Part shown: positions 5,150-26,321 of the stretch, in pieces
Numbering within the stretch: position 1 is the first letter of the stretch
Layout: each line of letters begins with the position of its first letter
NCBI GenBank assembly: GCA_008632985.1
Contig: QPGO01000177.1
Coordinates: 124,001 to 152,991, forward strand
Direction: 5' to 3'
DNA: 28,991 bases
Source of the DNA: Psammoneis japonica
Taxonomy: Eukaryota
Notes under the pieces: model-generated
Told to the model about the DNA's origin: nothing
Seen by the model: only the letters and a program-made list of their open reading frames with translations
The model's database searches: none
Program-made: the position numbers and the translations under genes

Positions 5150-5357
5150 CTTCTGCAACTTACACAGTATTGAATGTATCATTTGTCGGCTAGTCATGCA
5201 GTTTCTCGCTAGTGGAAGATCAATGTGGATACAGCGTCCTACCAACTGCTTTACTTCTGCAACTTACACAGTATTGAATGTATCATTTGTCGGCTCGTCA
5301 TGCAGTTTCTCTCTAGTGGAAGCTCAATGTGGATACAGCATCCCACCAACTGCTTTA
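5150..5357. repeat. 104-bp direct tandem duplication (2 copies)
   Basis: cttctgcaacttacacagtattgaatgtatcatttgtcggct... starts at 5150 and again at 5254, with only a few substitutions. Confidence 0.92.
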
Positions 5358-5733
5358 CTCCAATAGCGTATTCCTTTCCTCGCTTGTAATCAATGACTTC
5401 CTTTGCAGCGTTATCACAATTTTTCGAATCACGTCGTCCTGGTCTGAGTCTTCCCTTCTCAAGTTGGGTAGGTTGTTTCATAAGACGTCCGACCTCCTAA
5501 ATCCCCAGGAGAACCTCAATGATTTTTGATTTATCTGCAGAACCAATGTCACGACAATGCGGGTTTAGATGGGACCATATTTTGTCATCCAGAATTCCGT
5601 CCACAAACGCTCCTTGCTTGCCAAAACCTTGAAAAAACAGAGTTGATCCCAGAAGAATCATCAAAACAGCACCCAATATTGTGTGAATAGATGTCGGAAG
5701 ATATTACTCTGCTCTTCAATCAAAGGGAACTTA

Positions 5734-6003
5734 TCATTGACTACTGCAACCGATGCAAACAGACGGTGGTGCTAGTTCGTATCTTGAGACGCAGAGGCGG
5801 TTGGAACAGTCAACTCTAGGAGAGTTGACAGTTGATTTCCCCGCAGCGACGGGTGCACGGATGAAGATTATATGATGCCCTTTTCTCGACGCTTCGTTTA
5901 CCATTCCTTTCAGCTTTCTGAACGTATCGACGAGCGGGATGAAGACACCATTCTCTGCATCAGCCAGGTCGAGAAGTACAGCTGTAAATTCAGCCACCGA
6001 CAT
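5734..6003 (-). pseudogene. Degenerate 5' fragment of a P-loop NTPase-like gene (remnant may continue to ~4950)
   Basis: MSVAEF...HIIFIRAPVAAGKST is a hydrophobic strand plus a Walker A-like AxxxxGKST. The frame is lost shortly afterwards. A second copy lies at ~17334-17650. Confidence 0.5.
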
Positions 6004-6044
6004 CTGTCATTGTCGTCTCGAAAGGGAATATCAGGCGTGACTAA

Positions 6045-6857
6045 GACCCGTCGCAGTCGTGGAAAATGGGTGTAATTCGGGTGTAATTTGGGGGTGTAAA
6101 AACGCGCATCGCGCGAATTTACACCCCAAAATTACACCCGATTTTCTCACGACTGCGAGAGTGTGAAATTGGATGTCTGTAATTCTGCGAGAAATGATAT
6201 ATCCATTCAATATATACTCCTCAAAAATTGTTGATAATTAACCAGGAATAACTCTATATCTCTAATTTTAATCAACTTATTTGTGCGCGAAGCTGAACAT
6301 TCTATTGACAGCATCGAAACACCATGGCGTTCGGCGGCTCCGCTGCGACCTTACGCATATCAAATCATTGTTCTGACAAGTCTAGTCCATTTAAAATAAC
6401 GTGATTAACATCATATGTTACTATTGTATCCATAGCCAAGGTTTCAGCGACTATATGACGTGTTTTTCTTCTGAAATGGCATGAACTTGCCTTCATTTTG
6501 TTGTTCGTTAATGGCAATCTCATCGTTTTTCGCCATTATTTCTTTCATAAATATATCATAATAGTTCCCCATCAACGAGTTCTTACATCGCTTACTGGTT
6601 GAAGTTCGTCGTTGATTGTTGGTTGCCATTGTTGTTCGACATTCTGATGTTTGTTGCCGTCATGGACGATGATGAGTCTGTTTTCGTACGAAAAATTACA
6701 GGCACTTACGAAAAATTACAGGCAAAAATTACATGCCTCAGGACGGGTAATTGTTGGCTGTAATTTTTTTTGAGGGGTGTAAAAACGCGCGTCGCGCGTT
6801 TTTACACCCCAAAATTACACCCCGAATTACACCCCTTCGTCACGACTGCGACGGGTC
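6045..6857. mobile_element. Non-autonomous TIR DNA transposon (MITE), PIF/Harbinger-like, 813 bp
   Basis: Ends GACCCGTCGCAGTCGTG... and ...CACGACTGCGACGGGTC are a perfect 17-bp terminal match with ~85 bp imperfect TIR. Flanked by TAA on both sides (6042-6044, 6858-6860), the 3-bp TSD typical of PIF/Harbinger. Subterminal (T)GTAATT repeats; no transposase-length ORF. Absent from paralogous sites (~8110, ~17660). Confidence 0.88.
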
Positions 6858-6889
6858 TAAGCCTTTTAGGTAGTCGCTGAAGAAGCGGT

Positions 6890-9600
6890 GTAAACACCGT
6901 GTTATTTTGTTGGGCCACATAACCTAATCCGAGATTTTTTGAATTTTGGCATGGATTATTTCGTCGTTGTGGAACAACGGGCTTCGCGGACAATGAATGA
7001 ACATCAAGGCCTTGCAGCGTCCAACAGCTGTTGTTGAACTTGACACAGAGAAGCATGCCATGGCACTTCAAGCACTCAGCAGGCTGAGTTCAATCACGTA
7101 AGAGAAGTGATGATCAGCCCACTCCTCCAGCCCCACTCCAGTTGTCACACACACATTTCTTGAACATTGAAGACCTCACTGCCTGAAATGTTTTGCCAGT
7201 GATTGCCTTCACCAAGGTGTTGAGATGACAGCACTGGACATGCACAAGAAGGGTGATTTGCATTGATCATGCCTGGCCTCTGCTGTTAGACAGCAACAGC
7301 AGGCAACCGTGCCATTGCCAGAACAAGAAGAGAGTTTTCCCTTGTCCAGCTTTGCTCACAGCAAGGAGTGCAGCTGATGCAAGTTTCCTTCCTCTCCTCA
7401 GCACCGCCAGTGCAGCTGTCATCAGCTGCACATGACAACACAAAGAGAGGCAAGTTTTGCCGCCAATTGTGCGATCTTCTCATTCAACGCTGCGGCAGCA
7501 CGAGCACATGTGCATTTGATGTCTTTTGGCTCTGTTTGCCTTCAGATTCTTGTTTGGGTTCTTTGTTCCATGCTTCTTGGGCCTTGTTTGGCTTGCTGCT
7601 GCTGATGTTGGCATTGTCTTTGCTGCCATGGCAAGCCTTGTTCTCTTTCTTGTGTGTGTCTTCCTTGCACTGCATGTCCATGTAAAACAAAAAACTGTGT
7701 CTTTTGACTGGAGGCAGAAAAGTGCAGCTGCTCACAACCTCCAATGCAAGCTCAGTGACAGCAGCTGTGGCATGCTTCCATGGCATGGGCTGAAGTCATC
7801 TCAGCAGCTGCCAACTCCAAGAACAGCCTCATGTTTTGCAATTTACAACATGCTTGGGTGTCAATGCAAGGCCCAGGGAGCACATCTGTTTTCATGTTGG
7901 TTGCGTGCTTTGTAAAAAGATTTGTCAGTTCACACATGGTGTCAAATGGAGCACATCTCCCTTGTTGCTGCTTGCTCACATGGAGCCATTGTGGTGCTGC
8001 TCTTTTGAAGCAACATTCTTGCTGGCGACATTTTCTTTCACAGAACATCCATGCCAGTCACACAAACAACAGGGTGCTGCACTGTAAATTCAGCCACCGA
8101 CATCTGTGTTGTCATCTCTTTTGGTTGCTGATGAAAAATGTCCACAAAAGACCACAACAGGAAACACCGTGTTGTTTTGTTGGGCCACACAGCCCAGTCC
8201 CATTCCATTTTGACATGGATTTTTGTTGTGGTGGAACACCGGGTTTTGCAACAATGAAAATCAAGGCCTTGCAGCATCCAACAGCAGCTGTTGAACTTGG
8301 CACAAAGAAGCACACCAGGGCACTTCAAGCACTCAGCAAACTGTGTTCAATCATGCAAGTGATCAGCCCACCTCAGCCATCACATTTTTTGAATGACCCA
8401 GGTGATGCTTGTGTGGTGGTGTCAGCACCATCACATCCACTTTTCATTGACCTTGCTGCCTGAAACATTTTGCCAGTCATTGCTTTTGCCAAGCTGTTGA
8501 GATGACAGCAGCGCTGGACATGCACAAGAAGGGTGATCTGCGTTGTTCATGCCTGGTCTCTGCTGCCAGACAGCAGCAACAGTCATGCCATCGCCAGAGA
8601 GAACAAGAGAAGAGAATCTTCTTTCCTTGTCCAGCTTTGCCCACAACAAGGAGTGCAGCTGTTGCAAGTTTCCTTTCTGTCCACAGCACCACCAGCGCAA
8701 ATGTCATCAGCTGTGCAAAATGACAAAAAGAGAGGCAAGCCTTGCTGCCTCTCTTTTTGTTGAGTGTGGCCATTTTTTCCAACCTCTCCATCAGCAAGCA
8801 CATGCAAAATTGATTTTTTTACTCTGCTTGCCTTCAGGTTCTTGTTTGGCCTCCATTTTCTAACCTTGATCACATCTTTTCCTGACTTCAAGCCAAGATG
8901 GGATGAACATGGGGCATTTGGCCATTTCAGCAATTTGTTGGGGGCAGCTTGCTGACACAAAGTTGTGGCTTTCTTTTTTCAAGTCTTTTTTGCAATTTGC
9001 ACTTTGGGCATTGGCTTGGTCCAAGACAACACAGCCATGACCCCTTGGCAACAGCCACAACCACTTCAGCAATTGCCCCACAGCCCCTCAGCAGACTGGC
9101 CACAAATCCCATTTCAGGTTGCGGGGTCATTGCCAGCTCTCATTGCTGCAAACTGATGATGAGGTCACACACATCTTCAATTCAGCTTCTTTGCTCTTGT
9201 TGTCAAGAATCTCAGAACAACTGAAGTGCCCAAAGGGCATGCCACAATTTGTCTGCTTGGCTCTGTCTTGACTTTGGCCAAGTTTTGAAAACTGCTGTTG
9301 TTGTCAACTCCAACAGTCTCATTTTGCAACTTGCAACTTGCAACATGCTTGGGTCAATGGTCAATGCAAGGCACAGAGTGCTGTCATGAGTGAGCACATC
9401 CATTTTTGTGTGGGCGTCATGTGTTTCACAAAGAGATTTGTCAGTTCACACATCATGGCATCAAATGGGTGCATCTTTCTTGTCACTTCTCATCCAGATG
9501 GAGCTGTTCTTGTGCTGCTCTTGAAGCAATGTTGCTCCTGGTGACATTTTCTTGCACAGAACATCCATGCCAGTCACAAACAAAAATCCTTGTGCCTTGG
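6890..9600. repeat. Internal ~1.2-1.5 kb tandem duplication within unit 1 (6890-8075 vs ~8083-9600; third copy at ~17630-19070)
   Basis: Shared anchors such as tcaaggccttgcagc(g/a)tccaacagc (7005, 8261, 17732), ggacatgcacaagaagggtgat (7236, 8516, 18005) and cacagaacat (8039, 9555, 19037). Confidence 0.88.
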
Positions 9601-12600
9601 TTTTCTGACAATGGCAAAGAATGGAAGGAGCTGCTTGCAAAGGATTTCATGCAAAGGTGAGGGTCTGAGTGGCTGGCCCAATCACTGTGTTCTTTGCATT
9701 TTTTTTTGCATTGACAGCTTGCATGGTCAGCCCAGCAACATGTCCTTTGACACTGCCACACATTTCTTCCACAAAAGAGTCTGGGTTTGCAAGAGAAAGT
9801 GATGGAATGCTTTGAAAAAGCTTCTGCAAGCTCTTTCCATGCATCAAACTGCATTCTCTTCATGGATTTTGTCACAGAGTCATGACGACAATTGAGATGA
9901 GACACCCTCATCATGACACCACTTGCAATGATGCAATGGACATGCCACAATGAGGGGTGGCTGTTCTGGCAAATGAGAAAATGAGTGTGATGCCAGTGAA
10001 GACACTCTTGTTGTGCTCACAAAGAAGTGAAATGACATGCAGTGACCAAATGCTGTCTTTATTTTCAGATCATGATCACCTTGGTTCTTTGGCCACTGCA
10101 GCCACCGTTCATGGTCAAGGTCCCATTTTTTTTTTCAAGGGCGCAGTTGACCCATCAAATTTTGGTTTGACAGCATCAGAAAGCAAAGTCAAGGTGTTGC
10201 AAAAGGGCTTGAAAAACTCTCTTGCTTCATTGTCAAAGTCCAGGGTTGCCTTGAAAACAGGCCCACCTGGACCAAGCTTTCTGCCCTCCTGACCAAATGT
10301 TGTCTGCTGCTGCTTTGTTTCTTTTGGAGAGAAAAAGATGTGGGTGCATCATCTTGTGGGGCTTGGGGGGACAACTTGGTGCCATTGTGTTGTGAGGAGA
10401 TTTGCCAGAGTTGGTGGCAGGCAAGTGGCTGTCTTTTTGTTGTTGGATGAGTCATGTCCTCTGATTTGTTGCTTAAAAAATCTTTTTGCATGAGTTCACA
10501 ACACTCCAAAAATCATTGACAACATTGACAAACAACTGAGGGTCACCACAAGTTTCACATGGCAACCATTGTTTGAGAAGCCTGCAGTTGTTGGCAATCC
10601 ATGATTTTGGAGTTTCTGTCCAGCCCTCTGCTTCACAGTGAGATGGCAGGCTCATGAAAAGGCACTGCATTGCAAACCCAACACCAGGGGCATTGGCAAA
10701 ATTGTGTTGCTGCTGGGTGGAAATTGATTTCTGAGATGAAAGAGTGTTTTGAGTTGCATCAAACAGACAGTGCATTTTTGGACTGCTGCTGCTCAAGTGT
10801 GGGCACATTCAAGCAATTTAAAAACCATCAAGGCTGAGCAACACCAAGCTGTTTGGTGGCATCTGGGCACACTGCCAAACACATGATGCATTTGTGCCAA
10901 AATTGTGTCTGCAGAAATGTCGTGAGAAAACAAGAGTGTCAGAGGGAGATGGGCTAAAAGCAAATGAAGTGCATGGGAGATAAAAACAGCATTGATGATG
11001 AGCACCAAAAAGAGATGCAGGGAAAGCAATGCCAAGATGTTGCACAAGGGTGCAAAAGACAGAAAAAGAAACACACCCAAGTCAGCAAAACATGAGATGG
11101 TGGAATGACAAAAAGTCCACCCTCCTCACTGCTGGGGTTGCTCTTGGCCATTTTGAACCTGCCTGGTTGATCTCCACCTTGTTGCTGTTTGGACCCTTTT
11201 CATTGGGTTCAGCAGGGCCAAACCCTCTTGTTGGGCTCCACAAGCATGCAGGGCATGCACCTGCAGAACCCTGCATTCCAAATCTGGCAAGTGCAAAAAA
11301 CCTCACCTGGGCCATGTCTTGCCAGCACTGCCCACCCTGGGTTGAGGACAACACATGTGCACCACAAGGCAAGAGGTTGGTTGCCATGATGGTGAGCCAC
11401 TGCTTGTGATGAAAGAAGAAAGAGTCAAGCACTGAGCAATCCTCATCTGTGCACTGTGCACTCTTCCAACTTCCAAAACACCTGCCAAAAAGAAAAAAGA
11501 ACCAATTCACAGGGGTTTTGTTCTTTGCACATTCTTCAACACTGTCATTTGTTGCTTGCACCACTCAAATCTTGTGTTTTCCATGCCCCCAGCTGGGGTC
11601 TGCCATCTGCCATGAGTCATCTGGACCTGTTGGCAAGTGTTGCTGCTGTCATTGAACAACAGCTGTTTGGCAACAATTTTTGTTTTTGGAGCTCATGTTT
11701 GGCTGCCAGGATCCTCAAAAGCAACCTCACAACTGTGATGACAACTGCAGAAGAAGTCAGGCACTGGGAGAAGGTGGTTCTCCAGGAGTGTGGGCTCTGA
11801 GAGCATGGAGTTGCACATGATGTGACTGTGGCAACAGCCTCTGCTCTCATCAAAGAGTTCTCAGTGCTGGTCAGGTTGGCCTGAAGGTCAAACATGGTGT
11901 CAAACCATTGCTCATCATCTGAGAGCTTGTGACTGACCACAACAGATGGGTCTCAAGTGTTGTTGCTGGCAAGCATTGTGACACAGGAGGGAAGAAAGTC
12001 CCGCTGGACTTTCTTGTGCAGTTGCACAGACCCAATGCACAGCAGCCCACATCGCCTCCCACAATGCCCCCATTGATGCTGCAATCTGCTGCAGTGCACT
12101 GGTTTTGGACAAACTGTGAGCAGAAATGCAGAGCAGATGATGCTGTGGTCATTGACATGCAGAGGACTTGGATTTGTCCTGTGTTGTGTGGCAAAAGATG
12201 CTTTCACGGGCATTTTTGGCCACAGCAGAAAAAGCAAATCCTTTGGAAGCAACAGCTTGCATTGCACCAAATGTGCAAAAGAATGGGGCTCCTGTCTTGT
12301 CAAGTGCAGCTGCATTTCCAGCAGAAGGGGCACATCAGCACCAGCAGATTCTGGAACAGCAGAAGCAACACCATGAGGAGCATCACTGTCTCTCCCCACA
12401 CCAAGGTCACTTGGGTTGACAGCTGCCAAAATTGGGAATTGCCAGCCCCCAGGTTCAAGAAGGACAACAGCCATGGTGGAGGATGAAGGAGAGAATCCCA
12501 CATGCACTGGGTGGGCTGAGGGATGCAATGCCAGCTGCTGGTCTTTCACAAGATTGGGCCCCTGAAAGCAGGGTGCTTTTGCACTGCAAGGGCCCGGGTG

Positions 12601-14150
12601 GCACAAGCTTGGACAACATGGGCATCACTGTCAATGTCAAAGAACAAGCCATCATCTTGCATTGGGAGGTGTGGGGGTCATGGGCTTGGGCAGAGCACCA
12701 TGGCATGGAGTGTGGGGCATGCACTTTTGGGGCAAAGGTGCCATTGTGCTGAGCAGCCACAGAAAGCAGGAGGCTTTGCAGCTGCTTGCAAGCAAGGCTG
12801 TGACTGTTCCATGTGGTGCAGTGCTGACATGCACTGCTCCTGACTCCTGACTGCATGGAGTTCTTTGAAAGCATGGTGGGTTGCACTCTCAGGCATGACA
12901 CTTTTCTGTCCAAGACAGGAGCCACCCAAGGTTGGGATCAATGCTTCATGCTTGCACAGCTGATCTTGCCAACACAGAGCACAAAACCTTGTGCAGAAGA
13001 GCATGCTCAGGTGGCTTGTGGCACATGGCTTGAGCATCAGACAAAGCAATGATGTGCTTGCAGGTGAGGGCCTTGCTTTTGGTGCCAGTCACTGAGGTGC
13101 ACTTTCAGTGCTCATCAATCACAGAGGCTGTGGTCTTCAAGAGCAGAAGGAAAACAACACCTTCTTGCTGTCAAGCAGTGCAGGCAAGAAGCCCCCCCCC
13201 ATGCAGAGACTGCTGCAGGTGCCAAGAGACGTGGCATCACATGGCCGGTGCTGTTGTTGTTTCTTGCCAGCCACTTGACTTGTGAGCAAAAAATGCAAAA
13301 TGTGAGCACAAGTGCAAAAAGCTGATGGAACGCAGGGTTCAAGTCACCACTGTCAACATGTTTGCTTTTTTGGCATGTCGTGCACACAGTTCTCAAGGCT
13401 TTTGCAAAGTTCAGGGCCAGTGCCATGTCTTGGTGGTTGCTTGACAAGCAACCTTGCAAGGTCAATCTCCAACATGCAGCATTGCCTCTGCTCCAAATTC
13501 ACTGGCAAGGGCAGACAGGATGGTTTTTTTTTCGAGACACCTGTTTTTGTGAGCTCACAATGTCTTTTCAAACTCAGGGTGAGCCCATTTTGTCTTCTGT
13601 CCAACACAAGTTGCTGCAAATGCAGCCTGACATGTGGCAAGACAGGCACAACTGGTGGTCAGCCTGTTGACAACAAAGGCAGAAAATGCAAACAAGGTGG
13701 TGCAACACACCACACACTGGGGGTCCTCAAACTGGTGCCAGCAGCAACAGAAAGCCAAAAGAAAGACAAGCTCCATCATGACAGCACACAATTTTCAAGC
13801 CCATGAAGGTGCAGTTTGCCCATGAAGGTGCAGTTTGCTCTTGCAAATGTTGCGAGTGCAGTTGTGCTGGTTTTGTTTGCACCGCCAAGCCTGATTTTTG
13901 GCACGACTCAAAGAACTGCGCTTTTTCTGGCAGCCCCTCATGCCAGCAAGTTTGCTGTGACTGAGTGCACGGCATGCATGTGCAAAAATGCAGCACAGTT
14001 TGCAAGCCACTGCAGCAACTGCAGCTGCAGCTGCAGCACAAGATCTCTGGCTCAAAAAACTTGACAAAAAAAGAGCATTGTGAGAGGAAACCGAGAAGGA
14101 AATGACAAGCTCATGTGTCAGACAGAAGGGTCGCACTCACAGCTGAAGCA
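7100..14150. other. CpG- and TpA-depleted, TG/CA-enriched eroded block (copy 1); probable fossil genes or TE
   Basis: Manual count for 12481-13080 (600 bp): 0 TA and 1 CG. ORFs here are nearly devoid of Tyr and rich in C/H/Q/W/M. Borders are gradual. Confidence 0.9.
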
Positions 14151-14560
14151 GGAAGGACCACGCGCTGTGTTGGAGGGCATTCACGCATGATGTGTCCTTG
14201 TGTGTTCTTCACCCCAATCATTTAGGCCAGTCCACTAATGCGAACCCCATGTGACACAGAAGAAAAGACAAAGAATCTCTCTGCGAGCCATCGGGACCAC
14301 CTGTCAGCGTAATGTCGTGGTTACTTAACAATGATTCTTTCATTTACTTCAGGGAATTCTCGTTTACAAGTCATTCTCAAAATACCCAGTCGTTAAATAA
14401 GAAGTCATAATGAGCTTTTTCCCTTTTAACGACTATTTGGAGTTCGCATTGGGTCCACTCATCCGCGATCTCACGAACTCATCACCGTGACTTTTCTGCG
14501 TTGCTCACAAACTCTCCTCACAAAAAAAAACAAAGACAAGTAAGAGTGAAACAGAAAAAC

Positions 14561-15673
14561 ATGAAGATCGTTTACCAGCGCCTCTTGGCCCTCGCCTTCT
14601 TGATATCGGTCAAATGCCTCTACGTTGTTGCACAAGGGACACCGCAGTGTAACTTTCCTCCTATCAACAAGAACAAGGACAGGGGCGTCTATCTTTGGAA
14701 CGACTGCTTTTCCGATCAGTGGCATGTTCGGGTCGTTGCTGGAAAGCAACAGGCAGCGGTGGTTGATGGTACGTTTGATGCTGAGGTTAAGAATGGCTTG
14801 AGAGTGAACAAACTCTATTTACTCGAGGCAAAATTGGGAGACAAGGCGACAGCTTCGGGCTTCAAATTCGACGTGGGCAAAAAGGACATTGATGGCTTCG
14901 ATTTCAAAACATCAAAAGGGAAAGTATGCCTAACCATCAACTCTCCAGATGATGTTCCGTTCTACGTTGGCAAAACCAAGCTGCAGTATCCCAAGTCCAT
15001 CAGCATTCCCGGCTACAAGCCTTGTGGCGGACCTCTGATGGAATACAAGTTTGACAGTTCTAGAAGCTCAAACATCAACATTGACTCGGGAGAAAAGGGA
15101 TGGAACGGCAAGGTTGTTGGGTATACCTACAGTCATGACGGGTTTTCCAAACGCGGTATGAACTTTGACGGAAGGGACGACTACATGCTCATTCCTGCTT
15201 CTACGGGTTTGCAGATGAAGAACTATACCTTGATGGCCTGGGTGCGGTACGAGGATCCTCATAAGCCTGGGAATTCCCAATGGATTATTCAAAAGGCAGC
15301 AGCAATTGGTCTCAACATAAGGCAGGACACCCGCCGTGTAAGGACGGGTGGCTTTTTCGGGGGTTGTGGCAAAAATAACTTGGTTCAATTGGATAGCACC
15401 AAGACAGTTTCAACAGAAACCTGGACGCACATTGCAGCAACCAAGGATCAAGAGAAGCTGACACTCTACATCAACGGCGAAAACGTCGGGGAGAAAGTCC
15501 TCCCTAAACCAAATCACTACTGTGTCAACAGGGGACCATTCAACATTGGCTCCAGTTATCTAGGTTCGAAGGTGTCACCGGGCACATTCTTTAAAGGTAC
15601 GCTCGACACGGTCCGTGTCTACGACAAAGCTCTGGACAAGGACGAAATCACTGCGGAATTGTTTCGTCACTAA
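14561..15673 (+). CDS. Secreted protein with an N-terminal Cys-bracketed beta domain and a C-terminal LamG/concanavalin A-like (Laminin_G_3-type) domain, copy 1 (370 aa)
   Basis: ATG14561 follows an A-rich leader; signal peptide MKIVYQRLLALAFLISVKCLYVVAQG. LamG motifs: FDGRDDY, YTLMAWV, WTHIAAT, LTLYING, FNIG, FKGTLDTVRVYDKALDKDEI. Intronless. Confidence 0.9.
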   Translation: MKIVYQRLLALAFLISVKCLYVVAQGTPQCNFPPINKNKDRGVYLWNDCFSDQWHVRVVAGKQQAAVVDGTFDAEVKNGLRVNKLYLLEAKLGDKATASGFKFDVGKKDIDGFDFKTSKGKVCLTINSPDDVPFYVGKTKLQYPKSISIPGYKPCGGPLMEYKFDSSRSSNINIDSGEKGWNGKVVGYTYSHDGFSKRGMNFDGRDDYMLIPASTGLQMKNYTLMAWVRYEDPHKPGNSQWIIQKAAAIGLNIRQDTRRVRTGGFFGGCGKNNLVQLDSTKTVSTETWTHIAATKDQEKLTLYINGENVGEKVLPKPNHYCVNRGPFNIGSSYLGSKVSPGTFFKGTLDTVRVYDKALDKDEITAELFRH

Positions 15674-16032
15674 AGAGCGAGGGACGACGAAAAACATTCC
15701 ACGATGAAGTCAAGTTTGCGCAATCTTGTTTAGGAATAAAATAGTCTATCTACATGTTTAGCACCTCGTAATCTTATTTTTGTTCACGCAAACACCACAA
15801 TTTACGTTGTAGCTCTCCACCAGCACTACACTATTTGTGCCTGTCGTTGACAAGCAACGACGAATTGTGATGTGTATCCCGCGTGGCCCCGTCACCTCAA
15901 ACCATGTACGGTGTGCGAATTGATATCGGTGCCGGGCATTTTCTATCGTATGTACTGCCATAGCGGTTGAGGACTCAACTTTGTCGACACTTCTATCCGC
16001 ATAGCGTTCCTCCAGTAGCGGTATCTCATGCA

Positions 16033-17270
16033 TTAGATCAACTGGTGGTGAGCGACTGGATTCGCTTTTGAATAGTGAATAATGTTGCTCACTTCATCCT
16101 TGACGTCTTTTGCGCATTTGAAAACGGGAATTCCAATGTCGTAGGGCTGCGTCGTTGCAGGTTCCTGTGAATCCGTTGTCTCGTCCTTCGCTTCTGATGG
16201 ATCTCCATTCAAGGGTTGAAATGGCTGCTCGATCAAATGTCCAATCTCTTCAATACCCAACAAACACCAAGATGCCACAGCCACAACCAATAACGTCGGT
16301 ATCGAGCCAAGCGTCTTGATGAGACCCAGCGGTAAGGTTCCGCACCATAGAGTCAAAAACCTGCTTGTATGTCTTGAATAGGACCATGGGACGGGCGTCT
16401 TGACAATCTTTTCACACGACGACAATGTATCCACCAATACATTGACATCATGAGACAACTCTGACACATGTGAGGCTTCCCAAAAGTCCATTCTCGAATC
16501 TGGATTTTCCATGGCCGCGTCATGAAGCGCCGTGTGCATGGCGTGACAAAGCATCATTGCCGGTTCCAGTGGGCTGCTGCTGCTGCTGTCCATATGAGAC
16601 GGAATCGGCTTGTCCATTTTGCCAGAAACACATGTATAGCAGAGGGCATCCGGATATGCTTGGATTAGATGCAAGAGTCGTGAGGAGCTCTTGGGTGCAC
16701 TCGGCTGAAGATAATTCACAACACCTAGGGTTAGCTTTCGACAGGTTGACATGCATTTCGTCCACACACCCCTTGCCTCCCAAAACCTTGAATACGCCGA
16801 GTTGGTCCGAAACACCAGGAGGAGACTCATAAAGCCGCCCAACATGGAGTGGACCGTGGTCGGAAGACTGAACGGACGGTGACTAGGATATAACGTGTGG
16901 AATACGACAGCCAATATACAGAGCAATATATCTGCCGCCAAATGAAATCGAATTCGTCTCAAGACAAAGGAGTTGGGTATCGAGAGAAAGTTTCTCAGCC
17001 AGTCGTCCGAGCTGTACCGAAGTCCACTCTCTACCGATGGGCGACGAGCCGTCGGAACAACCGATATAAATTAGCAATGGATGAAGCCAGATCTTGCTCT
17101 TGAGTGTATTGGTGGCTGACTCTTCTTGACAACAACCGCCACCGCTTGGGTTCAGACAAACCAAGCGGCGGTCTCGTGTTTGAAACCGAGCTTCGAAAGG
17201 CTGAGACACACAGCAACGTTGACAAGACGACTAGAATCCGCGCACGCATCATGGCCACTACTTTCATCAT
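16033..17270 (-). pseudogene. Bestrophin-like (UPF0187/YneE/VCCN-type) gene copy 1, frameshifted
   Basis: Near-identical to 24986-26221 but with a 2-bp insertion at ~17065 (ccgaTAtaaattagc vs ccgataaattagc). This splits it into ORFs 17031..17270 and 16033..16962. Native upstream sequence is cut off ~60 bp from the ATG. Confidence 0.82.
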
Positions 17271-17333
17271 TGAACGGAGCAGCTCCGGAACTTTGTAAGA
17301 TGGTCATTTTTTTCAATTGGAGGACCAGCAGAG

Positions 17334-17648
17334 ATTGTGTGAATAGAAGTCGGGAGATATTATTCTGCACTTCAATAAAAGGGAACTTATCATTGACTAC
17401 AACAACCAATGCAAACATACTTTGGTGCTAGTTCGTCTCTTGAGACGCAGAGGCGGTTGGAACAGTAAACTCTAGAGTTGATTTCCCCACAGCGACGGGT
17501 GCACGGATGAAGATAATATGATGCCCTTTACTCGACGCTTCGTTTACCATTCCTTTCAGCTTTCCGACCGCATCGTCGAGCGGGATAAAGACACCACTCG
17601 CTACGTCGAGAAGTAGGTAGGGCCTACTGTAAATTCAGCCGCCGACAT
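17334..17648 (-). pseudogene. Second, 3'-truncated copy of the P-loop gene fragment
   Basis: Homologous to 5678-6003 (HIIFIRAPVAVGKST readable on the minus strand). Has indels and is cut at the duplication junction. Confidence 0.5.
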
Positions 17649-17899
17649 CTGTCATTGTCGTGCTGATGAAAAATGTCCACGAGGAAACCACCTCGCTGTT
17701 ACCGTATTCCGAGATTTTTGGAATTTTGGCATCAAGGCCTTGCAGCGTCCAACAGCTGTTGTTGAACTTGACATAGAGAAGCATGCCATGGCACTTCAAG
17801 CCCTCAGCAGGCTGTGTTCAATCATGCAAGTGATCAGCCCACTCCAGCCCCACTCCAGTTGTCACACACCATTTCTTGAATGACACCCTGGTGGCGTGC

Positions 17900-20800
17900 T
17901 TGCATGGTGGTGTGAGAGCACCATCACATCCACTCTTCATTGAAGACCTCACTGCCTGAAATATTTTGCCATTCATTGCTTTCACCAAGGTGTTGAGATG
18001 ACATGGACATGCACAAGAAGGGTGATTTGCATTGGTCGTGCCTGGTCTCTGCTGCCAGACAGCAGCAACAGGCAGTCGTGTCATTGCCAGAACAAGAAGA
18101 GAGCTTTCCCTTGTCCAGCTTTGCTCACAACAACGAGCACAGTGGTTGTGAGTTGCTTTCCTTTTCTCAGTGCCACCAGCACAGTTGTCATCAGCTGCAC
18201 ATGAAGACACAAAGAGAGGCAAGTTTTGCCACCAATTGTGCGCGCTCTTGTCCTCTTTTCTTGTTCAGTGTGGCTGCACGAGCGCATGATGTGCATTTGA
18301 TTTCTTTTGGCTCTGTTTGCCTTCAGGTTCTTGTTTGGATTCTTTGTTCCAACCTTGACCATGTCTTTTCCTGACTTCAAGCCAAGATGGGATGAACGTG
18401 GGGCATTTGGCCATTTTGGCAATTTTTGTTGTGCAGCTTGCTGACGTGCTTGTTCTTGGGCCTTGTTCAGCTCACTGCTGCTGCTGCTGGCATTGTCTTC
18501 ACTGCCATGGCAAGCCTTGTTCTCTTTCATGCAGGTGTTTTCCTTGCACTTCATGTCCTTGTGAAACAAAAAACTGATGGCTTTTGACTGGAGGCAGAGA
18601 AGTGCAGCTGCTCACAACCTCCAATGCAAGCTCAGTGACTGCAGCTGTGGCATGCTTCTGCATCATGCTGAAGTCATTTTCATGTTCATCTTGGCTCTTG
18701 TCATAAAGAGTCTCACAACAACTGCCTAAAAAACATGCCACAATTTATCTGTTTGTCTCTGTCTTGATTTTGGCTGAGTTTTTGAAACTGCTGCAGCTGC
18801 CAACTTCAACATCCTCATTTTGCAATTTGCAACATGTTTCTTTGGTGCCAATGCAAGGCACAGGGAGCTGTGAATGAGCTCATCTGTTTTCACATTGGTC
18901 ACATGTTTTGTAAAGATGTTTGTCAGTTCACACACATGGTGTCAAATGGGGCACATCTCTCTTGTTGCTGCTCATCCACATGGAGTCATTGCAGTGCTGC
19001 TCTTTGGAAGCAATGTTCTTGCTGGTGACATTTTTTCACAGAACATCTGTGCAAGTTGCAAACAACAGAAATCCAGTTGACTTGGTTTCTCAACATTGGC
19101 AAAAAACAGGGGCAGCTGCTTGCAGAAAATTTCATGCAAAGGCAAGGGTCTGAGTGGTCAGCCTGATTCTTGTGCTCTTTGTGTTTTTTCCTGATGTTGA
19201 TGGCTTGCATGGCCAGCCCAACATGCTGTTTGATGCTGCTTTTTCTGCAACAAGAAAGGAGTCAAGGCTTGCAAGCGAAAGTGGTGGCATGCTTTGAAAG
19301 AGCTTCCACAAGCTCTCTCCACATCAGACTTCATTCTCTTTTGTGAACCTTGCCACAGAGCTGTGATTGCAAATGGGGTGAGGCACCCTCAACACCACTT
19401 GTCACATGACAGACTTGCCATGGGCTGTTCTGGCAAATGAGAAAATGAGTGTGACAGCACCAGTGAGGAAGCAAATGTTGTGCTCATGCAGAAAAGTGAA
19501 ATGATGTGCAGCGACCAAACACTGTGTTTGTTTTCAGCTCACAACCTCTTGGTTCTTTGGCCACTGCAGCCACCATCCATGGTCATGGTCTCATTTCTTT
19601 CAAGGGCACAATCAACCCATCAAATTTTGGTGCTTCAGCATCAGAAAGCAAAGTCCAGGCATTGCAAAAGGACTTGCAAAACTCTTCTGCTTCATTGCCT
19701 GAGTTCAGGATTGTCTTGAAAACAGGTCCACCTGGGCCAAGCTTTCTGTCCTGACCAAATGTTGTCTGCATCTCTTTGGGAAAGAAAAAGATGTTGTTGG
19801 CACATCATCTTGTGGGGTTTTGGGAACAACTTGGCACCACTGTGTTGTGAGAAGATTTGCAGGAGTTGGCAGTGGGCAAGCAGCTGTCCTTTTTTGTTGA
19901 AGTCACATCCTTTGAGTTGCCTTTAAAGAAACCACTTTTTGCAGGAGTTCAAAGCACTCTGAAAATCATCAACAATGCTGATGAACAACTGAGTGTCACC
20001 ACAAGCTTGAGATGGCAACTGTGTGAGAAGCCTGCAGTTGCTGGCAATGATGTTGAAGTTTCTGTCCAGCCCTTTGTTGCACAGTGAGATGGCAGGCTCA
20101 TGAAAAGGTGCTGCAGTGCCAACCCAGTGCCGGGGGCATTGGCAAAAATTTGTGTTGCTGCTGGGTGGAAATCAAGTTCTGAGATGAAACAGCATCTTGA
20201 CTTGCATCAAACAGACACTGCATTCTGGGGCTCCTTCTGCTCAAGTGTGGGTGCATCCAAGCAATTTAGAAAAACTGCTGGGACCAGCATTGCCGAGCAA
20301 TTTGGCAGCATTTTGGCACCAAACACACATGGTGCATTCATGCAGAATTGTGTGTGCAGAAATGGCATGGGAAACAAGGGTGGTGATGAGAGATGGGCTA
20401 AAAAAAATGAATCTAAATTTCAAGCGCTGTTGCTCCATTGCCAGCTGTGCTGGCACCAGTTAAAAATTAAAAACAGAAGCTTGCAAGGATCAGCCAAGGT
20501 TGGCACCACCTTGTTGCAATGCACTCACCTGAGACAACTGGTGTTTGTTGCTTTCTTTTTTGACTGGAGCAGCAGTTGCCACACCACAACAGCAAAGGAC
20601 AGAAGTGCTCAGAAATTGGCTCAACAGCAGCACAAGAAATGAGATGGGCTGCCAGACCACAGACTTGCACTTGTCAAAAAGAGGCCTGGTTTTACACCAA
20701 GTGGTGCAGCAGCAACAGAAATGTTGCCACGCATGGAGCAGGGAGCTTGGCATGCCAGCAAGTGAGGGAGGGGTTGTCCAGGACTGGGAGGTGAGAAGCA

Positions 20801-23050
20801 GGAGCACTTGATGACATGATGAGTTGGTTGTCAGAAGAAACATTCATCTCATGCAGAAATGATGCCAAAGCTCTCATGGAAGTGCTGGTGCATGCAGGAA
20901 ATGGACGCATCTGCCAAATGATGTGGCTTGTTTTCTCTTGCTCATGTGTGTTGCAATGGAGGTGGCACTTTCACTGCTCAGAGTGAAGGACTTGACAGGC
21001 CAGCAGGGAGAGAAAAGATTGTTGGGGGTGGACGGGTGTGGACAAGAGCTGTTCTGAGATTTGACTGTGTGATCGTTGGAGGATGTTTCAGGAGCATGCA
21101 GAATTTGTGCTGAAACCTGCTTGGAAATTGCACTGAACTGGCAGAAAATTGCTGGAAAAGTCAACAGGCTTGCAATCCACAAGGCATTGATGCCAGTTGG
21201 TTTCCACTGGAAAATGTCCCTTGTCATGCTGCAACAAGGTTGTGCCATCAGCAGAGATGGCTAAAATGTGCTGGTGCGACCCAGGGAGAAACCATCTGAG
21301 AAGGGCAACATCAATGCAAAAGGGCATGCAGAAACACACACAGAGGCTGAGGGTGAGCAGCTGACATCAAAAAGTGAGAGATGCTGAAAGCAAATGAAGT
21401 GCAGAAGACCAGCAACAATGATGTGCACAGAGATGCCAAGAAAGCAATGCCAAGATGTTGTGAGGGCACAAAAGAGAGAAAAAGACACACACACACACAC
21501 CCCAAAACATGTGCTGCATTGCCAAAAGCCCACACCCTCCTCCTTGCTGGGGTCACTCTTGGCCATTTTCAACCCACCTCTGGTTGGTCTCCACCTCATT
21601 GCCACTTGGGCCCCCCTTGTTGGGCTCCACAAGTGTGCGGGTCATGCAGAGTTCTGCACTCCAGATCTGGCAAGGAACCTCACCTGGGCCATTTTTTGCC
21701 ACCATCCATCCTGGATTGAGATCAATGCATGCACCACAATGCAAGAGGTCAGCCACCATGTTGCACTGCTGCTGAATGATGAAAGGAAGAATCAAGCCCC
21801 AAGCGGTCCTTGCCTGTGCACTGTGCACTCTTTCAAAACACCTGCCCAAAAGAAAAACAAACAAGGCCAAAAGAAAAAAAAAACACACAAGGGTTTTGTG
21901 TTTGCACACTCTCAAACCCAAACATTTGTTGCTTGCATTGCCCACATCTTGTGTCTTCCATGCCCCCCAGCTGGGGTCTGTGCCATGATTCATCTGCTGA
22001 ACCTGCCAGCAGATGTTGCCATTGTCATTGAATGGCGACTCTTTGGCAAGAAGTCATGGCACATTTTTGTCATTTGACAATTTTTGTTTGGATCTTGTGT
22101 TTGGATGCTGGGATTCTTGGAAGCAACCTCATGATTGTGACAACTGCAGAAGAAGAAGTTGGGTGCTGGGAGAAGGTGGTTCTCCAGTGTGAGCTCTCTG
22201 AGAGCATGGAGCTGCACATGATGTGACAGTGGCAACAGCCCCTGCACTCATCAAAGAGTTCTCAGTGCTGATCAGGTTGGCCTGGAGGTCAAACATGGCC
22301 ATCAAACCATTGCTCATCATCTGAAAGCTTCCAGCTGACCACAACAGGTGGGTCCTGAGCATTGTTGCACCAGCAAGCATGACAGAGAATTGAGAGGTTG
22401 TGCGGCAATGGACAGCATCCCACATCACCACCCTCAATCCTCCTGTTGATGCCAAGATCTGCCACAGTGCCAGCTTTGGACAAGCTGTCAGCAGAAAAAC
22501 AGAGCAGATGATGCTGTGGGGTCATTGACATGTTGGCTGGTGTGCAACTTGGATTTGTCCTGTGTTGGTTGCAACAAAAGCAGAAAGTGCAAACAAAATG
22601 CAGTGCGCCACGCATTGGAGGGTCCTCTCACTGATGCCAGCAGCGGCGGCAGCAAAAATCCACAAGAAAGACAAGCTCCAACATTGCAGTGCACAACTTT
22701 CAAGCTCACAAAGGCACAGCTCGCTGTTGCAAACTTCCACAGGCACAGCTGTGCTGGCTTTGTTTGTGCTGTCAAGCCTGGTTTTCTGGTGCCCCTCCCC
22801 CTGTGCCTGTCTCAAGGAGAGCCACACTTTTTCTGGTGGCCTCTTGTGCCCATCTGTGGCTGTTTCCTGTGACTGAGTGTGCCACGTGCAGGTGCAAAAA
22901 TGCAAAGCAGTTTGCAAGCCACCACAATTTTTGCAGCTGCAGCACAAGATCTTTGTGGCTCAAAAGACTTGGCAAAAAGAGTGTTGTGAGAGGAAGCCAA
23001 GAAGGAAATTAGAACATGTCAGACAAAAGGGGGGCACACTCAGCTGAGGC
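17900..23050. other. CpG- and TpA-depleted eroded block (copy 2)
   Basis: Same dinucleotide signature as copy 1 and collinear with it, but highly diverged from it. Confidence 0.9.
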
Positions 23051-23526
23051 AGGAAGGGCCATGTGTCATGTTCATTCAAGCTGGTCGAAGACATCGCCGC
23101 CGAGGGACATTCATGCATGATGTGTTCTTGTGTGTTCTTCACCCCAATCATTTGGGCCAGTCCATCAATGCGAACCCCACGTGATGAAGACGACAAAGAA
23201 TGAATCTCTCTGTGAGCCAACCGGACCTGCCGACCACCTCCTGTTCCATGGTTTAGCGCATGATGTGGTAGGTGGGTATTTAACAATGACTCTTTAACAT
23301 ATCTTTTTACTTTTTCAAATGAATGCTCTTTTATAAGTCATTGTCTCTAAATAAGAAGTCATAATGAGCTTTTAACATTTAACGACTCTATTTTTGGAGT
23401 TCGCATTGGGTGCACTCATCCGCGATCTCATTGATCATCGAACTCATCGTCACTTTTCAGCGTTGCTCACAAACTCTCCAAAAAAAAAAAAGAACAAAGA
23501 CAAGAGTAAGAGTGAAACAGAACAAT

Positions 23527-24645
23527 ATGAAAATCGTTTACCAGCGCCTCTTGGCCCTCGCCTTCTTGATATCGGTCAAATGCCTCTACGTTGTTGCGCA
23601 AGGGACACCGCAGTGTAACTTTCCTCCAATCAACAAGAACAAGGACAGGGGCGTCTATCTTTGGAACGACTGCTTTTCCGATCAGTGGCATGTTCGGGTC
23701 GTTGCTGGAAAGCAACAGGCAGCGGTGGTCGATGGTACGTTTGATGCTGAGGTTAAGGATGGCTTGAGAGTGAACAAACTCTATTTACTTGAGGCAAAAT
23801 TGGGAGACAAGGCGACAGCTTCGGGCTTCCAATTCAACGTGGGCAAAAAGGACATTGATGGCTTCGATTTCAAAACCTCAAAAGGGAAAGTGTGCCTAAC
23901 TATCAACTCTCCAGATGATATTCCATTTTACATCGGCAAAACCAAGCTGCAGTATCCCAAATCCATCAGTATTCCCGGCTACAAGCCTTGTGGCGGACCT
24001 CTGATGGAATACAAGTTTGACAGTCCTAGGAGGATAGGGTCAAGCATCAACATTGACACAGGAGAAAAGGGATGGAACGGCAAGGTTGTTGGGTATGCCC
24101 ACTATCGTGACGGATTTTCCAAACATGGTATGGGCCTTGACGGAAGGGATGACTACATGCTCATTCCTGCTTCTACGGATTTGCAGTTGAAGAACTATAC
24201 CTTGATGGCCTGGGTGCGGTACGAGGATCCTTATAAGCCTGGGAACTCCCAATGGATTATTCAAAAGGCAGCAGCAATTGGTCTCAACATAAGGCAGGAC
24301 ACCCGCCATGTAAGGACAGGTGGCTTTTTTGGGGGTTGTGGCAAAAATGACTTGGTTCAATTGGATAGCACCAAGACAGTTCCAACAGAAACCTGGACGC
24401 ACATTGCAGCAACCAAGGATCAAGAGAAGCTGACACTCTACATCAACGGTGAAAACGTCGGGGAGAAGGTACTCCCTAAACCTAATCACTACTGTGTCAA
24501 CAAGGGGCCGTTCAACATTGGCGCCAGTTATCTTGGTTCGAAGGTGGCACCGGGCACATACTTTGATGGAACGCTCGACAACGTCCGTGTCTACGACAAA
24601 GCTCTGGACAAAGGCGAAATTTTTTCTGAAATGTTTCGTCAATAG
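23527..24645 (+). CDS. Secreted LamG/concanavalin A-like domain protein, copy 2 (372 aa)
   Basis: Intact paralogue of 14561-15673 with the same signal peptide and LamG motifs; ATG at 23527. Confidence 0.9.
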   Translation: MKIVYQRLLALAFLISVKCLYVVAQGTPQCNFPPINKNKDRGVYLWNDCFSDQWHVRVVAGKQQAAVVDGTFDAEVKDGLRVNKLYLLEAKLGDKATASGFQFNVGKKDIDGFDFKTSKGKVCLTINSPDDIPFYIGKTKLQYPKSISIPGYKPCGGPLMEYKFDSPRRIGSSINIDTGEKGWNGKVVGYAHYRDGFSKHGMGLDGRDDYMLIPASTDLQLKNYTLMAWVRYEDPYKPGNSQWIIQKAAAIGLNIRQDTRHVRTGGFFGGCGKNDLVQLDSTKTVPTETWTHIAATKDQEKLTLYINGENVGEKVLPKPNHYCVNKGPFNIGASYLGSKVAPGTYFDGTLDNVRVYDKALDKGEIFSEMFRQ

Positions 24646-24985
24646 AGAGGGACGACGAAAAGCGTTCCACGATGAAGTCAAGTTTGCGCAGTCTTGTTTA
24701 GGGATAAAATAGTTCCATTTACATGTTTTGCACCTCGTAATCTTATTTTTGTTCACGCAAACACCACAATTTACGTTGTAGCTGCACTACACTGTTTGTG
24801 CCTGTCGTTGACAAGCAACGACGAATTATGATGTGTATCCCGCGTGGTCACCTTCACCTCAAACCATGTACGGTGTGCGAATTGAAATGTGCTTCTACCG
24901 TATATACTCCCATAGCGTTTGAGAGACTCAACTTTGTCGACACTTCTATCCGCATAGCGCTCCTGCAGTAGCGGTAGCTCCTGCA

Positions 24986-26221
24986 TTAGATCAACTGGTT
25001 GTGAGCGACTGGATTCGATTTTGAATAGTGAATAATGTTGCTCACTTCGTCCTTGACGTCTTTTGCGCACTTGAACACGGGAATTCCAATGTCGTAGGGC
25101 TGCGTCGTTGCAGGTTCCTGCAAATCCGTTGTCTCGTCCTTCGCTTCTGATGGATCTCCATTCAAGGGTTGAAATGGCTGCTCGATCAAATGTCCAATCT
25201 CTTCAATGCCCAACAAACACCAAGATGCCACAGCCACAACCAATAACGTTGGTATCGAACCAAGCGGCTTGATGAGACCCAGCGGTAAGGTTCCGCACCA
25301 TAGAGTCAAAAACCTGCTTGTATGTCTTGAATAGGACCATGGGACGGGCGTTTTGACAATCTTTTCACACGACGACAATGTATCCACCAATACATTGACA
25401 TCATGAGACAACTCTGACAAATGTGAGGCTTCCCAAAAGTCCATTCTCGAATCTGGATTTTCCATGGCCGCATCATGAAGCGCCGTGTGCATGGCGTGAC
25501 AAAGCATCATTGCCGGTTCCAGTGGGCTGCTTCTGCTAGTGTCCATATGAGACGGAATTGGCTTGTCCATTTTGCCAGAAACACATGTATAGCAGAGGGC
25601 ATCCGGATATGCTTGGATTAGTTGCAAGAGTCGTGAAGAGCTCTTGGGTGCACTCGGTTGAAGATAATTCACAACACCCAGTGTTAGCTTTCGACAGGTT
25701 GACATGCATTTCGTCCAAACACCCCTTGCCTCCCAAAACCTTGAATACGCCGAGTTGGTCCGAAACACCAGGAGGAGACTCATAAAGCCGCCCAACATGG
25801 AGTGGACCGTGGTTGGAAGACTGAACGCTCGGTGACTAGGATATAGCGTGTGGAATACAACAGCCAATATACAGAGCAATATATCTGCCGCCAAATGAAA
25901 TCGAATTCGTCTCAAGACAAAGGAGTTGGGTATCGAGAGAAAGTTTCTCAGCCAGTCGTCCGAGCTGTACCGAAGTCCGCTCTCTACCGATGGGCGACGA
26001 GCCGTCGGAACAACCGATAAATTAGCAATGGATGAAGCCAGATCTTGCTCTTGAGTGTATTGGTGGCTGACTCTTCTGGACAACAACCGCCACCGCTTGG
26101 GTTCAGACAAACCAAGCGGCTGCCTCGTGCTTGAAACCGAGCTTCGAAAGGCTGAGACACACAGCAACGTTGTCAAGACGACTAGAATCCGCGCACGTAT
26201 CATGGCCACTACTTTGATCAT
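24986..26221 (-). CDS. Plastid-targeted bestrophin-like anion channel (UPF0187/YneE/VCCN/BST family), 411 aa
   Basis: Family motifs LLLVFRTNSAYSRFWEAR, PVPWSYSRHTSRFL and GIEEIGHLIEQPF. N-terminal signal peptide ends CVSA|F (ASAF-type cleavage motif) and is followed by an S/R-rich transit peptide. Confidence 0.93.
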   Translation of the reverse strand: MIKVVAMIRARILVVLTTLLCVSAFRSSVSSTRQPLGLSEPKRWRLLSRRVSHQYTQEQDLASSIANLSVVPTARRPSVESGLRYSSDDWLRNFLSIPNSFVLRRIRFHLAADILLCILAVVFHTLYPSHRAFSLPTTVHSMLGGFMSLLLVFRTNSAYSRFWEARGVWTKCMSTCRKLTLGVVNYLQPSAPKSSSRLLQLIQAYPDALCYTCVSGKMDKPIPSHMDTSRSSPLEPAMMLCHAMHTALHDAAMENPDSRMDFWEASHLSELSHDVNVLVDTLSSCEKIVKTPVPWSYSRHTSRFLTLWCGTLPLGLIKPLGSIPTLLVVAVASWCLLGIEEIGHLIEQPFQPLNGDPSEAKDETTDLQEPATTQPYDIGIPVFKCAKDVKDEVSNIIHYSKSNPVAHNQLI

Positions 26222-26298
26222 TGAACGGAGCAGCTCCGGAACTTTTAAGTGGTCATTTTTTCGATTGGAGGACCCAGGAAGATGATGGCGGCAGAAAA

Positions 26299-26321
26299 CG
26301 TGATGTCACGATGCTGACGTC
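26299..26321. promoter_or_regulatory. Candidate bZIP/CCRE-type element (TGACGT at 26315-26320) plus near-palindrome CGTGATGTCACG
   Basis: Lies ~95 bp upstream of the bestrophin ATG in the divergent intergenic region. TGACGT matches the CO2/cAMP-responsive element described for the Phaeodactylum ptca1 promoter. Short motif, so it could be chance. Confidence 0.4.

Follow-up and report, generated by a model that had tools for sequence, protein, structure and literature searches.

Introduction

To our knowledge, context-specific hypermutation of silenced DNA has been described only as C>T change, in repeat-induced point mutation (RIP), in CpG decay and in APOBEC editing. RIP, known from Neurospora and other fungi, converts C to T at CpA, which creates TpA and consumes CA/TG; it is limited to duplicated DNA, is strand-coherent, and is usually diagnosed by a TpA/ApT ratio of about 0.89 or more and a (CpA+TpG)/(ApC+GpT) ratio of about 1.03 or less. 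Here we describe a stretch of 28,991 bp from the diatom Psammoneis japonica (assembly GCA_008632985.1, contig QPGO01000177.1, positions 124,001 to 152,991), called the window below, in which two paralogous non-coding blocks (block A, 7100-14150, and block B, 17900-23050) are almost devoid of both CG and TA dinucleotides and rich in TG and CA. A literature search covering the main text of articles found no account, for diatoms or any other organism, of a DNA domain from which CG and TA had both been erased.

Several other systems share single traits with this locus. Hypermutation at TCG is reportedly found in basidiomycetes. Hyperediting by ADAR and APOBEC enzymes gives A>G changes with a preference for a 5' U/T, as well as clusters of C>T, and in antibody hypermutation polymerase eta targets WA motifs. 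Thymine modifications occur as 5-hydroxymethyluracil (5hmU) in dinoflagellates and as base J in kinetoplastids, formed by enzymes of the TET/JBP type, and we know of no mutational erasure of TA described for either. In dinoflagellates, according to the relevant part of PMC11572971, 5hmU prefers TA and TC, overlaps with 5-methylcytosine (5mC) on repeats and is linked to transposon silencing. As to diatoms, PMC9998398 states, in its part on this enzyme, that CG methylation is maintained by DNMT5a.

Loss of CpG and TpA in two intergenic blocks

Block A (7051 bp) holds 38 CG (observed/expected ratio, o/e, 0.09) and 12 TA (0.03), and block B (5151 bp) 29 CG (0.10) and 14 TA (0.04), against 367 CG and 263 TA expected in block A, and 268 CG and 192 TA in block B, from the density of the right flank. 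The loss of TA amounts to 95-97%, and the Poisson log10 P for the CG and TA deficits of the two blocks ranges from -62 to -106. CA and TG are in excess, with 850 CA (o/e 1.97) and 811 TG (1.81) in block A and 577 CA (1.89) and 617 TG (1.83) in block B. The same picture emerges from 500-bp windows: the 14 windows of 7001-14000 contain 0-8 CG and 0-3 TA each and the ten windows of 18001-23000 contain 0-9 CG and 0-5 TA, while those upstream of 7001 contain 19-46 CG and 7-35 TA and the remaining flank windows 12-33 CG and 11-28 TA; the o/e of TG+CA rises from about 1.0-1.4 in the flanks to 1.65-2.04 in the blocks. Non-coding DNA elsewhere in the window has normal CG and TA. These counts bear out the initial annotation of this DNA, which had reported two multi-kilobase blocks nearly without CG and TA and had correctly counted, by hand, a single CG (at 12595) and no TA in 12481-13080.

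The known indirect drop in TpA o/e under CpG decay is a normalisation effect according to Duret and Galtier, as cited in PMC3829696. Such a by-product was rejected as the source of the TpA deficit, since the raw TA counts themselves are near zero (12 and 14 versus the 263 and 192 expected); in this direct loss of TA the locus differs from methylation-driven CpG decay as seen in vertebrate genomes and methylated transposons, which it otherwise resembles in the conversion of CG to TG/CA on both strands, site by site and within a domain.

The blocks had been delimited in the initial annotation by one pair of coordinates each. Their placement holds, but the limits differ for the two dinucleotides: the TA-free zones are wider than proposed, and the CG-depleted cores are narrower (Table 1). 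In the shoulders of block A (7100-7501 and 13853-14222) CG reaches an o/e of 0.24 and 0.42, with one and no TA, respectively, and in those of block B (17775-18445 and 22606-23253) 0.23 and 0.35, with one TA each. The TA-free zone thus overshoots the core by 370-670 bp on each side, with a shoulder TA o/e of at most 0.04. Since CG is kept in the shoulders where TA is gone, loss of CG and loss of TA (the CG and TA arms below) are separable. Such nested domains could mean either that the two arms are separate processes or that TA conversion is the faster one within a domain growing outwards.

The left end of each block also carries a cluster of retained CG (7405-7501, with 6 CG in 97 bp, and 18134-18283), three of which are common to both copies in the alignment of 7165-7570 with 17938-18351; it may be a protected element or merely the shoulder of the domain. 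The block unit begins with a stretch of about 160 bp whose three copies (7002-7164, 8260-8430 and 17730-17880) are unusually well conserved, at about 90%, versus 71-77% deeper in.

The change is nearly restricted to transitions, TG+CA rising by about 85 per kb and CG+TA falling by a matching amount, about 88 per kb, and AA/TT are enriched in the blocks (o/e 1.24-1.31). Both figures are at odds with a hypermutation of the AID and polymerase eta type, with its WA targets and many transversions. They also bear on the idea that loss of TA is collateral damage of CpG repair, in which error-prone patch repair of T:G mismatches derived from 5mC would mutate nearby A:T pairs. One primary lesion would then be enough, and the co-location of both depletions as well as a mild general rise in transitions would be accounted for; however, the TA losses are nearly all transitions, whereas polymerase eta makes many transversions, AA/TT are enriched, and the TA-free zone extends past the CG-free core into shoulders that hold CG. 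We consider this explanation very improbable.

Direction and timing of the changes

The initial annotation had read the direction of change, from CG and TA to TG/CA, from a few paralogous positions, all of which were confirmed: CGTA at 7097 has TGCA as its counterpart near both 8347 and 17818; TA at 6903, 6920 and 6925 stand against TG, CA and CA in the copy at 8171; gacaTAgag at 17770 against gacaCAgag at 7042; and ttTAggcc at 14221 against ttTGggcc at 23151. Systematic comparisons point the same way. When the flank copy 6892-7557 is aligned with its duplicate inside the block (8162-8849), CG in the former is opposed to TG/CA in the latter at 8 sites versus 3 in reverse, and TA to TG/CA at 5 sites versus none. 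Among 154 three-copy columns, 114 are concordant, 22 mix CA and TG, three contain CA, CG and TG, and one contains CA, TA and TG; in the columns of the last two classes a single ancestral CG or TA was resolved in a different way from copy to copy. Columns with CG in one or two copies and TG or CA in the rest number eight, and six block alignments contain 26 sites with CG in one copy and TG/CA in the other.

The change arose in place and was set by position, not by the sequence itself, because an internal duplicate of the normal left flank of block A (A2, Table 1) is depleted within the block, while its homologues outside (5982-6040 and 6862-7001) are normal (CG o/e 1.22 and 1.47, TA 0.50 and 0.63). 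Foreign or viral DNA with a composition of its own was rejected as an explanation, since this duplicate of the host flank became depleted once it was inside the block.

Blocks A and B belong to the two units of a tandem duplication (Table 1). In two alignments of block A with block B, TG is opposite CA at 46 of the 332 and 31 of the 234 aligned TG/CA sites, a double transition that is otherwise rare. From this discordance, an estimate that about 38% of TG/CA are derived, and a one-in-two chance that conversions in the two copies disagree, we infer that about 70% of the conversions followed the tandem duplication and about 30% preceded it; the regime acted both before and after that event. At sites outside pyrimidine-purine steps, transversion divergence between the blocks is 2-4%, similar to the 3.5% (11/313) of the 4-fold degenerate sites of the co-duplicated genes, hence the blocks are as old as the genes. 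With equal age, conversion would have run some 50-100 times faster per site than neutral transitions.

Sequence context, end state and the case for selection

The blocks have reached a fixed end state, in which both copies have C as the pyrimidine preceding A at 670 of 687 sites and T as the pyrimidine preceding G at 691 of 725. TG and CA are balanced (811:850 in block A, 617:577 in block B), and runs tests on sets of 46, 31 and 11 discordant TG/CA sites were not significant (z -0.58, -1.24 and -0.93). The sites were therefore resolved independently, without strand runs.

The few surviving TA lie in a particular context: 22 of 26 are in TAAA/TTTA, compared with 73 of the 477 flank TA (P about 1e-14) and with 14-18% expected for TA newly made by single substitutions; in narrower block ranges 24 of 25 residual TA have A on their 3' side or T on their 5' side. 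Because the flanking bases protect on both strands, recognition of the TpA step seems to take place on duplex DNA. The context effect among surviving CG is weak (TCGA and TCGG rare, P 0.035), with TCGA making up 1 of 54 surviving CG versus 53 of 589 in the flanks. A:T>G:C changes are not equally frequent elsewhere: summed over the three lineages of the three-copy alignment, T>C outside pyrimidine-purine steps is found at 23 of 185 sites, against the near-complete loss of TA. This agrees with the proposal of the initial annotation that a TA-specific A:T>G:C process is needed beside CpG decay.

A different reading of the end state is selection, in which every CG and TA (UA in RNA) in the island is harmful, for instance as a nuclease or RNA-decay target on a long transcript or as an insertion site for a TA-specific transposon. 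CG and TA are both self-complementary, so that selection on RNA from either strand would appear strand-symmetric in DNA. Between copies, CA>TA (10/687) and TG>CG (30/725) are rarer than C/T differences at pyrimidine-pyrimidine steps (157/1564, versus 40/1504 in the mostly coding flanks), which purifying selection would fit too, and two residual TAAA sites, matched by their flanking letters and not by alignment, look common to the copies (10819/20267 and 10955/20399). Joint suppression of CpG and UpA under selection is described for RNA viruses and cytoplasmic mRNA in the part of PMC3829696 that deals with it, and resembles the present case in that the same two dinucleotides are low and TG/CA high. 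That suppression, however, is moderate and concerns expressed RNA, while here a non-coding DNA island shows a near-absolute loss, with signs of fast directional change since the duplication, and o/e values of 0.03-0.10 are far below those familiar from viruses or mRNAs. Moreover, the blocks otherwise evolve freely, with many insertions and deletions, a central identity of 71-77%, no codon periodicity and no RNA family, so that no functional constraint is seen in them; about 450 TA and 630 CG sites would each require an advantage of their own, and other non-coding DNA of the window is normal. Selection is thus an unlikely explanation, although its probability is not negligible.

Authenticity of the depleted sequence

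The sequence was compared with contigs built from a public read set (X1, platform not on record) at a word depth of about 61x, using 31-mers. Two further runs, X2 and X3, cover almost none of the stretch, and no RNA run was listed for 10500-15500, a negative that carries no information on expression. One X1 contig of 4636 bp (word depth 60.8) is identical to 9961-14596 save for one difference (13230 C>T, itself a CG/TG difference); it crosses the edge of block A into normal flank, and the flanks of the X1 contigs have normal CG and TA. Word depth is 61-138 in the block, with the higher values where paralogues cross-map, and 62-102 in the flanking genes. The contigs exclude a consensus or polishing error, though not a peculiarity of the strain, and, as far as they reach, they rule out the consensus or base-calling artefact that the initial annotation had named as a possible refutation.

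It could still be argued that the DNA in fact carries CG and TA at these sites, and that TG/CA arose through base-calling, through polishing or from a chemically converted library. Modified bases are a possible source of systematic long-read errors, and X1 is perhaps the same sample as the assembly. Misreading of a modification on both strands would, however, be expected to leave mixed TG/CA reads at each site and broken 31-mer contigs, whereas the contigs are continuous at full depth across 4.6 kb and pass into normal flank at equal depth, for which reason a misread modified base was rejected; the TAAA-specific survival and the paralogue patterns are also biological in kind. An artefact is hence extremely unlikely. 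The assembly and the X1 contigs differ at four positions inside block A, two of which (13230 C>T and 7497 A>G) are of the CG/TG or CA/CG type; these two may be polymorphisms produced by an ongoing process.

Comparison with RIP and other hypermutation systems

In several respects the blocks resemble the products of RIP: the change is regional, near-saturating, confined to transitions and sharply bounded, and adjoining genes are intact. In contrast to RIP, the change here removes TA and ends at CA/TG. The RIP indices are likewise inverted, with TpA/ApT at 0.03 (block A) and 0.05 (block B) and (CpA+TpG)/(ApC+GpT) at 2.12 in both, far from the usual thresholds.

A RIP-like defence triggered by duplication could nevertheless be envisaged as a single system, for example a RID-related DNMT4 combined with a deaminase that has A as well as C as its targets. 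In its favour, the blocks arose by tandem duplication and include another, internal duplicate, much of the conversion is later than the duplication, C>T at TCY is raised (12/38 versus 11/99 at other C), and TCGA is rare among surviving CG. DNMT4 genes related to RID, with no function assigned, are present in 31 of 60 diatom species surveyed, as given in the part of PMC9998398 on this family. Yet the genes co-duplicated with the blocks are untouched, with 19 transitions at 313 4-fold sites and normal CG and TA; so is an adjacent high-copy element resembling a miniature inverted-repeat transposable element (MITE). About 30% of the conversions are estimated to predate the duplication, no strand-coherent runs are present, and protection of TAAA on both strands points to recognition of duplex rather than single-stranded DNA. 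Taken with the inverted indices, these points make such a system improbable. The suggestion in the initial annotation of a genome defence that inactivates repeats is not supported either: the word depth of the blocks is that of the flanking genes, and both the MITE-like element and the co-duplicated genes are spared.

As for the remaining systems, TCG looks like the most mutable CG context here, as in the hypermutation ascribed to basidiomycetes, although the signal is weak (P 0.035). ADAR and APOBEC hyperediting, when fixed in retroelement copies, likewise yields A>G and C>T changes; it is, however, strand-coherent, depends on RNA or single-stranded intermediates and never saturates, while the present change is symmetric and saturated and took place in situ in low-copy DNA. 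Thymine modification of the kind known from dinoflagellates and kinetoplastids, with its reported preference for TpA, is a candidate for the TA arm. Dinoflagellate 5hmU, though, is reported to prefer TpC as well as TpA, and in the blocks T>C at TpC is not raised (8/75, versus 15/110 at TpT).

Proposed mechanism

We favour, with a probability of roughly 55%, the explanation that the blocks are a silent chromatin island subject to two mutagenic processes, decay of 5mC at CG and a TA-specific process that has no name as yet. Blocks A and B would be copies of one silent, non-coding intergenic island of the nuclear genome, bounded by gene promoters, and a position-dependent regime acting equally on both strands would convert CpG and TpA, the self-complementary pyrimidine-purine steps, into TpG/CpA by single transitions. 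Nothing is unusual about the CG arm, which deamination of 5mC in a CG-methylated island would fit. The TA arm would be a separate process recognising the TpA step in duplex DNA; no named mechanism for it was found in the literature search.

Formyl-uracil mispairs with G, and some TET enzymes oxidise T in addition to 5mC. The preferred candidate for the TA arm is a symmetric oxidation of T to 5hmU or 5-formyluracil by a dioxygenase of the TET/JBP type, where T>C would result from mispairing of the oxidised base with G. As an alternative, the adenine could be deaminated by an enzyme that works on duplex DNA. Both arms would be covered by a single 5-methylpyrimidine dioxygenase if it oxidised 5mC in CpG as well as T in TpA to formyl bases that mispair. 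The broader proposal, that diatoms, or this species at least, possess an undescribed modification or editing pathway which acts on duplex TpA in the same silent islands as CpG methylation and jointly erases both steps, is put forward tentatively, at somewhat less than an even chance.

A number of points weigh against the two-process explanation. The regime is not purely one of two dinucleotides, as other transitions are modestly raised (outside pyrimidine-purine steps 211/2078, versus 19/313 at 4-fold sites, about 1.7-fold, P 0.02), as is C>T at TCY (P 0.009). A simple simulation of CG and TA turning into TG/CA does not reproduce all dinucleotides, although part of the gap may reflect the composition of the baseline, which consists of mostly coding flanks: GC has an o/e of 1.39 versus about 1.0 simulated, AT 0.76 versus 0.91-1.03, AG/CT 1.04-1.12 versus 0.80-0.97 and GA/TC 0.84-0.90 versus 1.03-1.10; comparison of tri- and tetranucleotides with the simulated flank is confounded by the same coding content. 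Both enzymatic steps are deduced from sequence patterns. No report of 5hmU in diatoms was found among the articles searched, of which the 15 that name both diatoms and 5-hydroxymethyluracil all concern dinoflagellates. All evidence comes from one locus, with no outgroup sequence, and from reads whose sample may be that of the assembly and whose platform is not recorded. In a very large population, finally, selection keeps a small share of the probability.

The locus and its genes

The features of the locus are collected in Table 1. The two units of the tandem duplication match at 5678-6016 versus 17334-17661 (86%) and at 13666-17326 versus 22568-26274 (87.5%), and the long central alignments of blocks A and B have 71-77% identity with many insertions and deletions. 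The duplication of the blocks included the lectin-like and bestrophin genes, which are unaffected and have normal CG and TA. Each block ends some 200-260 bp before the open frame of the lectin-like gene downstream, and block B lies between a bestrophin gene and the second lectin-like gene, which are oppositely transcribed. The closest relatives of the bestrophins are diatom proteins, with at most 60% identity.

Table 1. Features of the analysed window of P. japonica (positions within the window)
Feature	Position	Strand	Remarks
Tandem duplication unit 1	5678-17326		promoter-side fragment, block A, lectin-like gene, bestrophin gene
MITE-like element	6041-6861		nested inverted ends of about 100 bp (6041-6139 versus 6756-6861); CG o/e 1.48, TA o/e 0.77
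Block A, TA-free zone	7100-14222		12 TA in 7.1 kb; non-coding, low-copy
Block A, CG-depleted core	7502-13852		24 CG in 6351 bp, o/e 0.07
A2, internal duplicate of the normal left flank of block A	8082-8260		inside the block; 3 CG and 1 TA in 179 bp
Laminin_G_3 (concanavalin-like lectin) gene	14414-15673	+	paralogue at 23383-24645; E 4.7e-26 and 3.6e-27
Bestrophin-family channel gene	16033-17070	-	paralogue at 24986-26305; E 1.3e-53 and 6.3e-53
Tandem duplication unit 2	17334-26274		block B, lectin-like gene, bestrophin gene
Block B, TA-free zone	17775-23253		paralogue of block A, 71-89% identity
Block B, CG-depleted core	18446-22605		14 CG in 4160 bp, o/e 0.06

The MITE-like element is CG-rich and not depleted, although block A is 240 bp away. 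Neither unit 2 nor A2 contains it, the insertion being confined to unit 1; the X1 word depth of 465-1200 across 6000-7000 suggests about 8-20 genomic copies.

Of 154 open reading frames of at least 60 aa in the blocks, the 134 with at least 64 aa were scanned against Pfam, and none reached a curated score, the best being CCD_aECM (E 7.7e-05, 23 bits versus a cut-off of 27). A block frame of 229 aa (21388-22074) had no homologue among 127 candidates, Rfam gave no match in the window, and scans for tandem and inverted repeats revealed neither tandem repeats in the blocks nor any terminal structure, such as that of long terminal repeats, around them. Mismatches between blocks A and B lack the three-base periodicity that the genes do show. 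Given these results and the many insertions and deletions, the blocks are low-copy, non-coding intergenic DNA. A coding gene with odd codon usage was rejected, as periodicity is missing and all six reading frames lack TA. In metagenome contigs, a 26-base pattern common to all three copies had no match, and none of 113 pattern matches to the lectin-like protein was confirmed as a relative; no orthologous or un-eroded copy was found there.

Several other features of the window were recorded. The region 505-4912 on the plus strand contains open frames of 954 and 521 aa with DUF7467/DUF7507 domains and a PT-repeat stretch, internal DNA repeats (2200-3014 and 4186-4506) and a strong negative GC skew, and is probably the gene of a repetitive secreted or cell-surface protein, or two such genes. 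Normal intergenic DNA at 5150-5359 carries an exact-length tandem duplication (two copies of a 104-bp unit, 95% identity). On the minus strand, 27672-28990 encodes a MORN-repeat protein, whose open frame leaves the window at its right end.

Implications

Under the broader proposal of a diatom pathway acting on TpA, the joint erasure of CpG and TpA would be a mirror image of fungal RIP. If the change is mutational, it would point to a base modification or DNA-editing enzyme that is new, in diatoms, one of the main groups of primary producers in the sea. Enzymes capable of A:T>G:C conversion in duplex DNA are, in addition, attractive as tools. A lack of both CG and TA, except for TA in TAAA, would be a simple signature by which long-lived silent chromatin of diatoms could be mapped without epigenomic data. 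The finding might also help to assign a function to orphan enzymes, such as the DNMT4 of diatoms.

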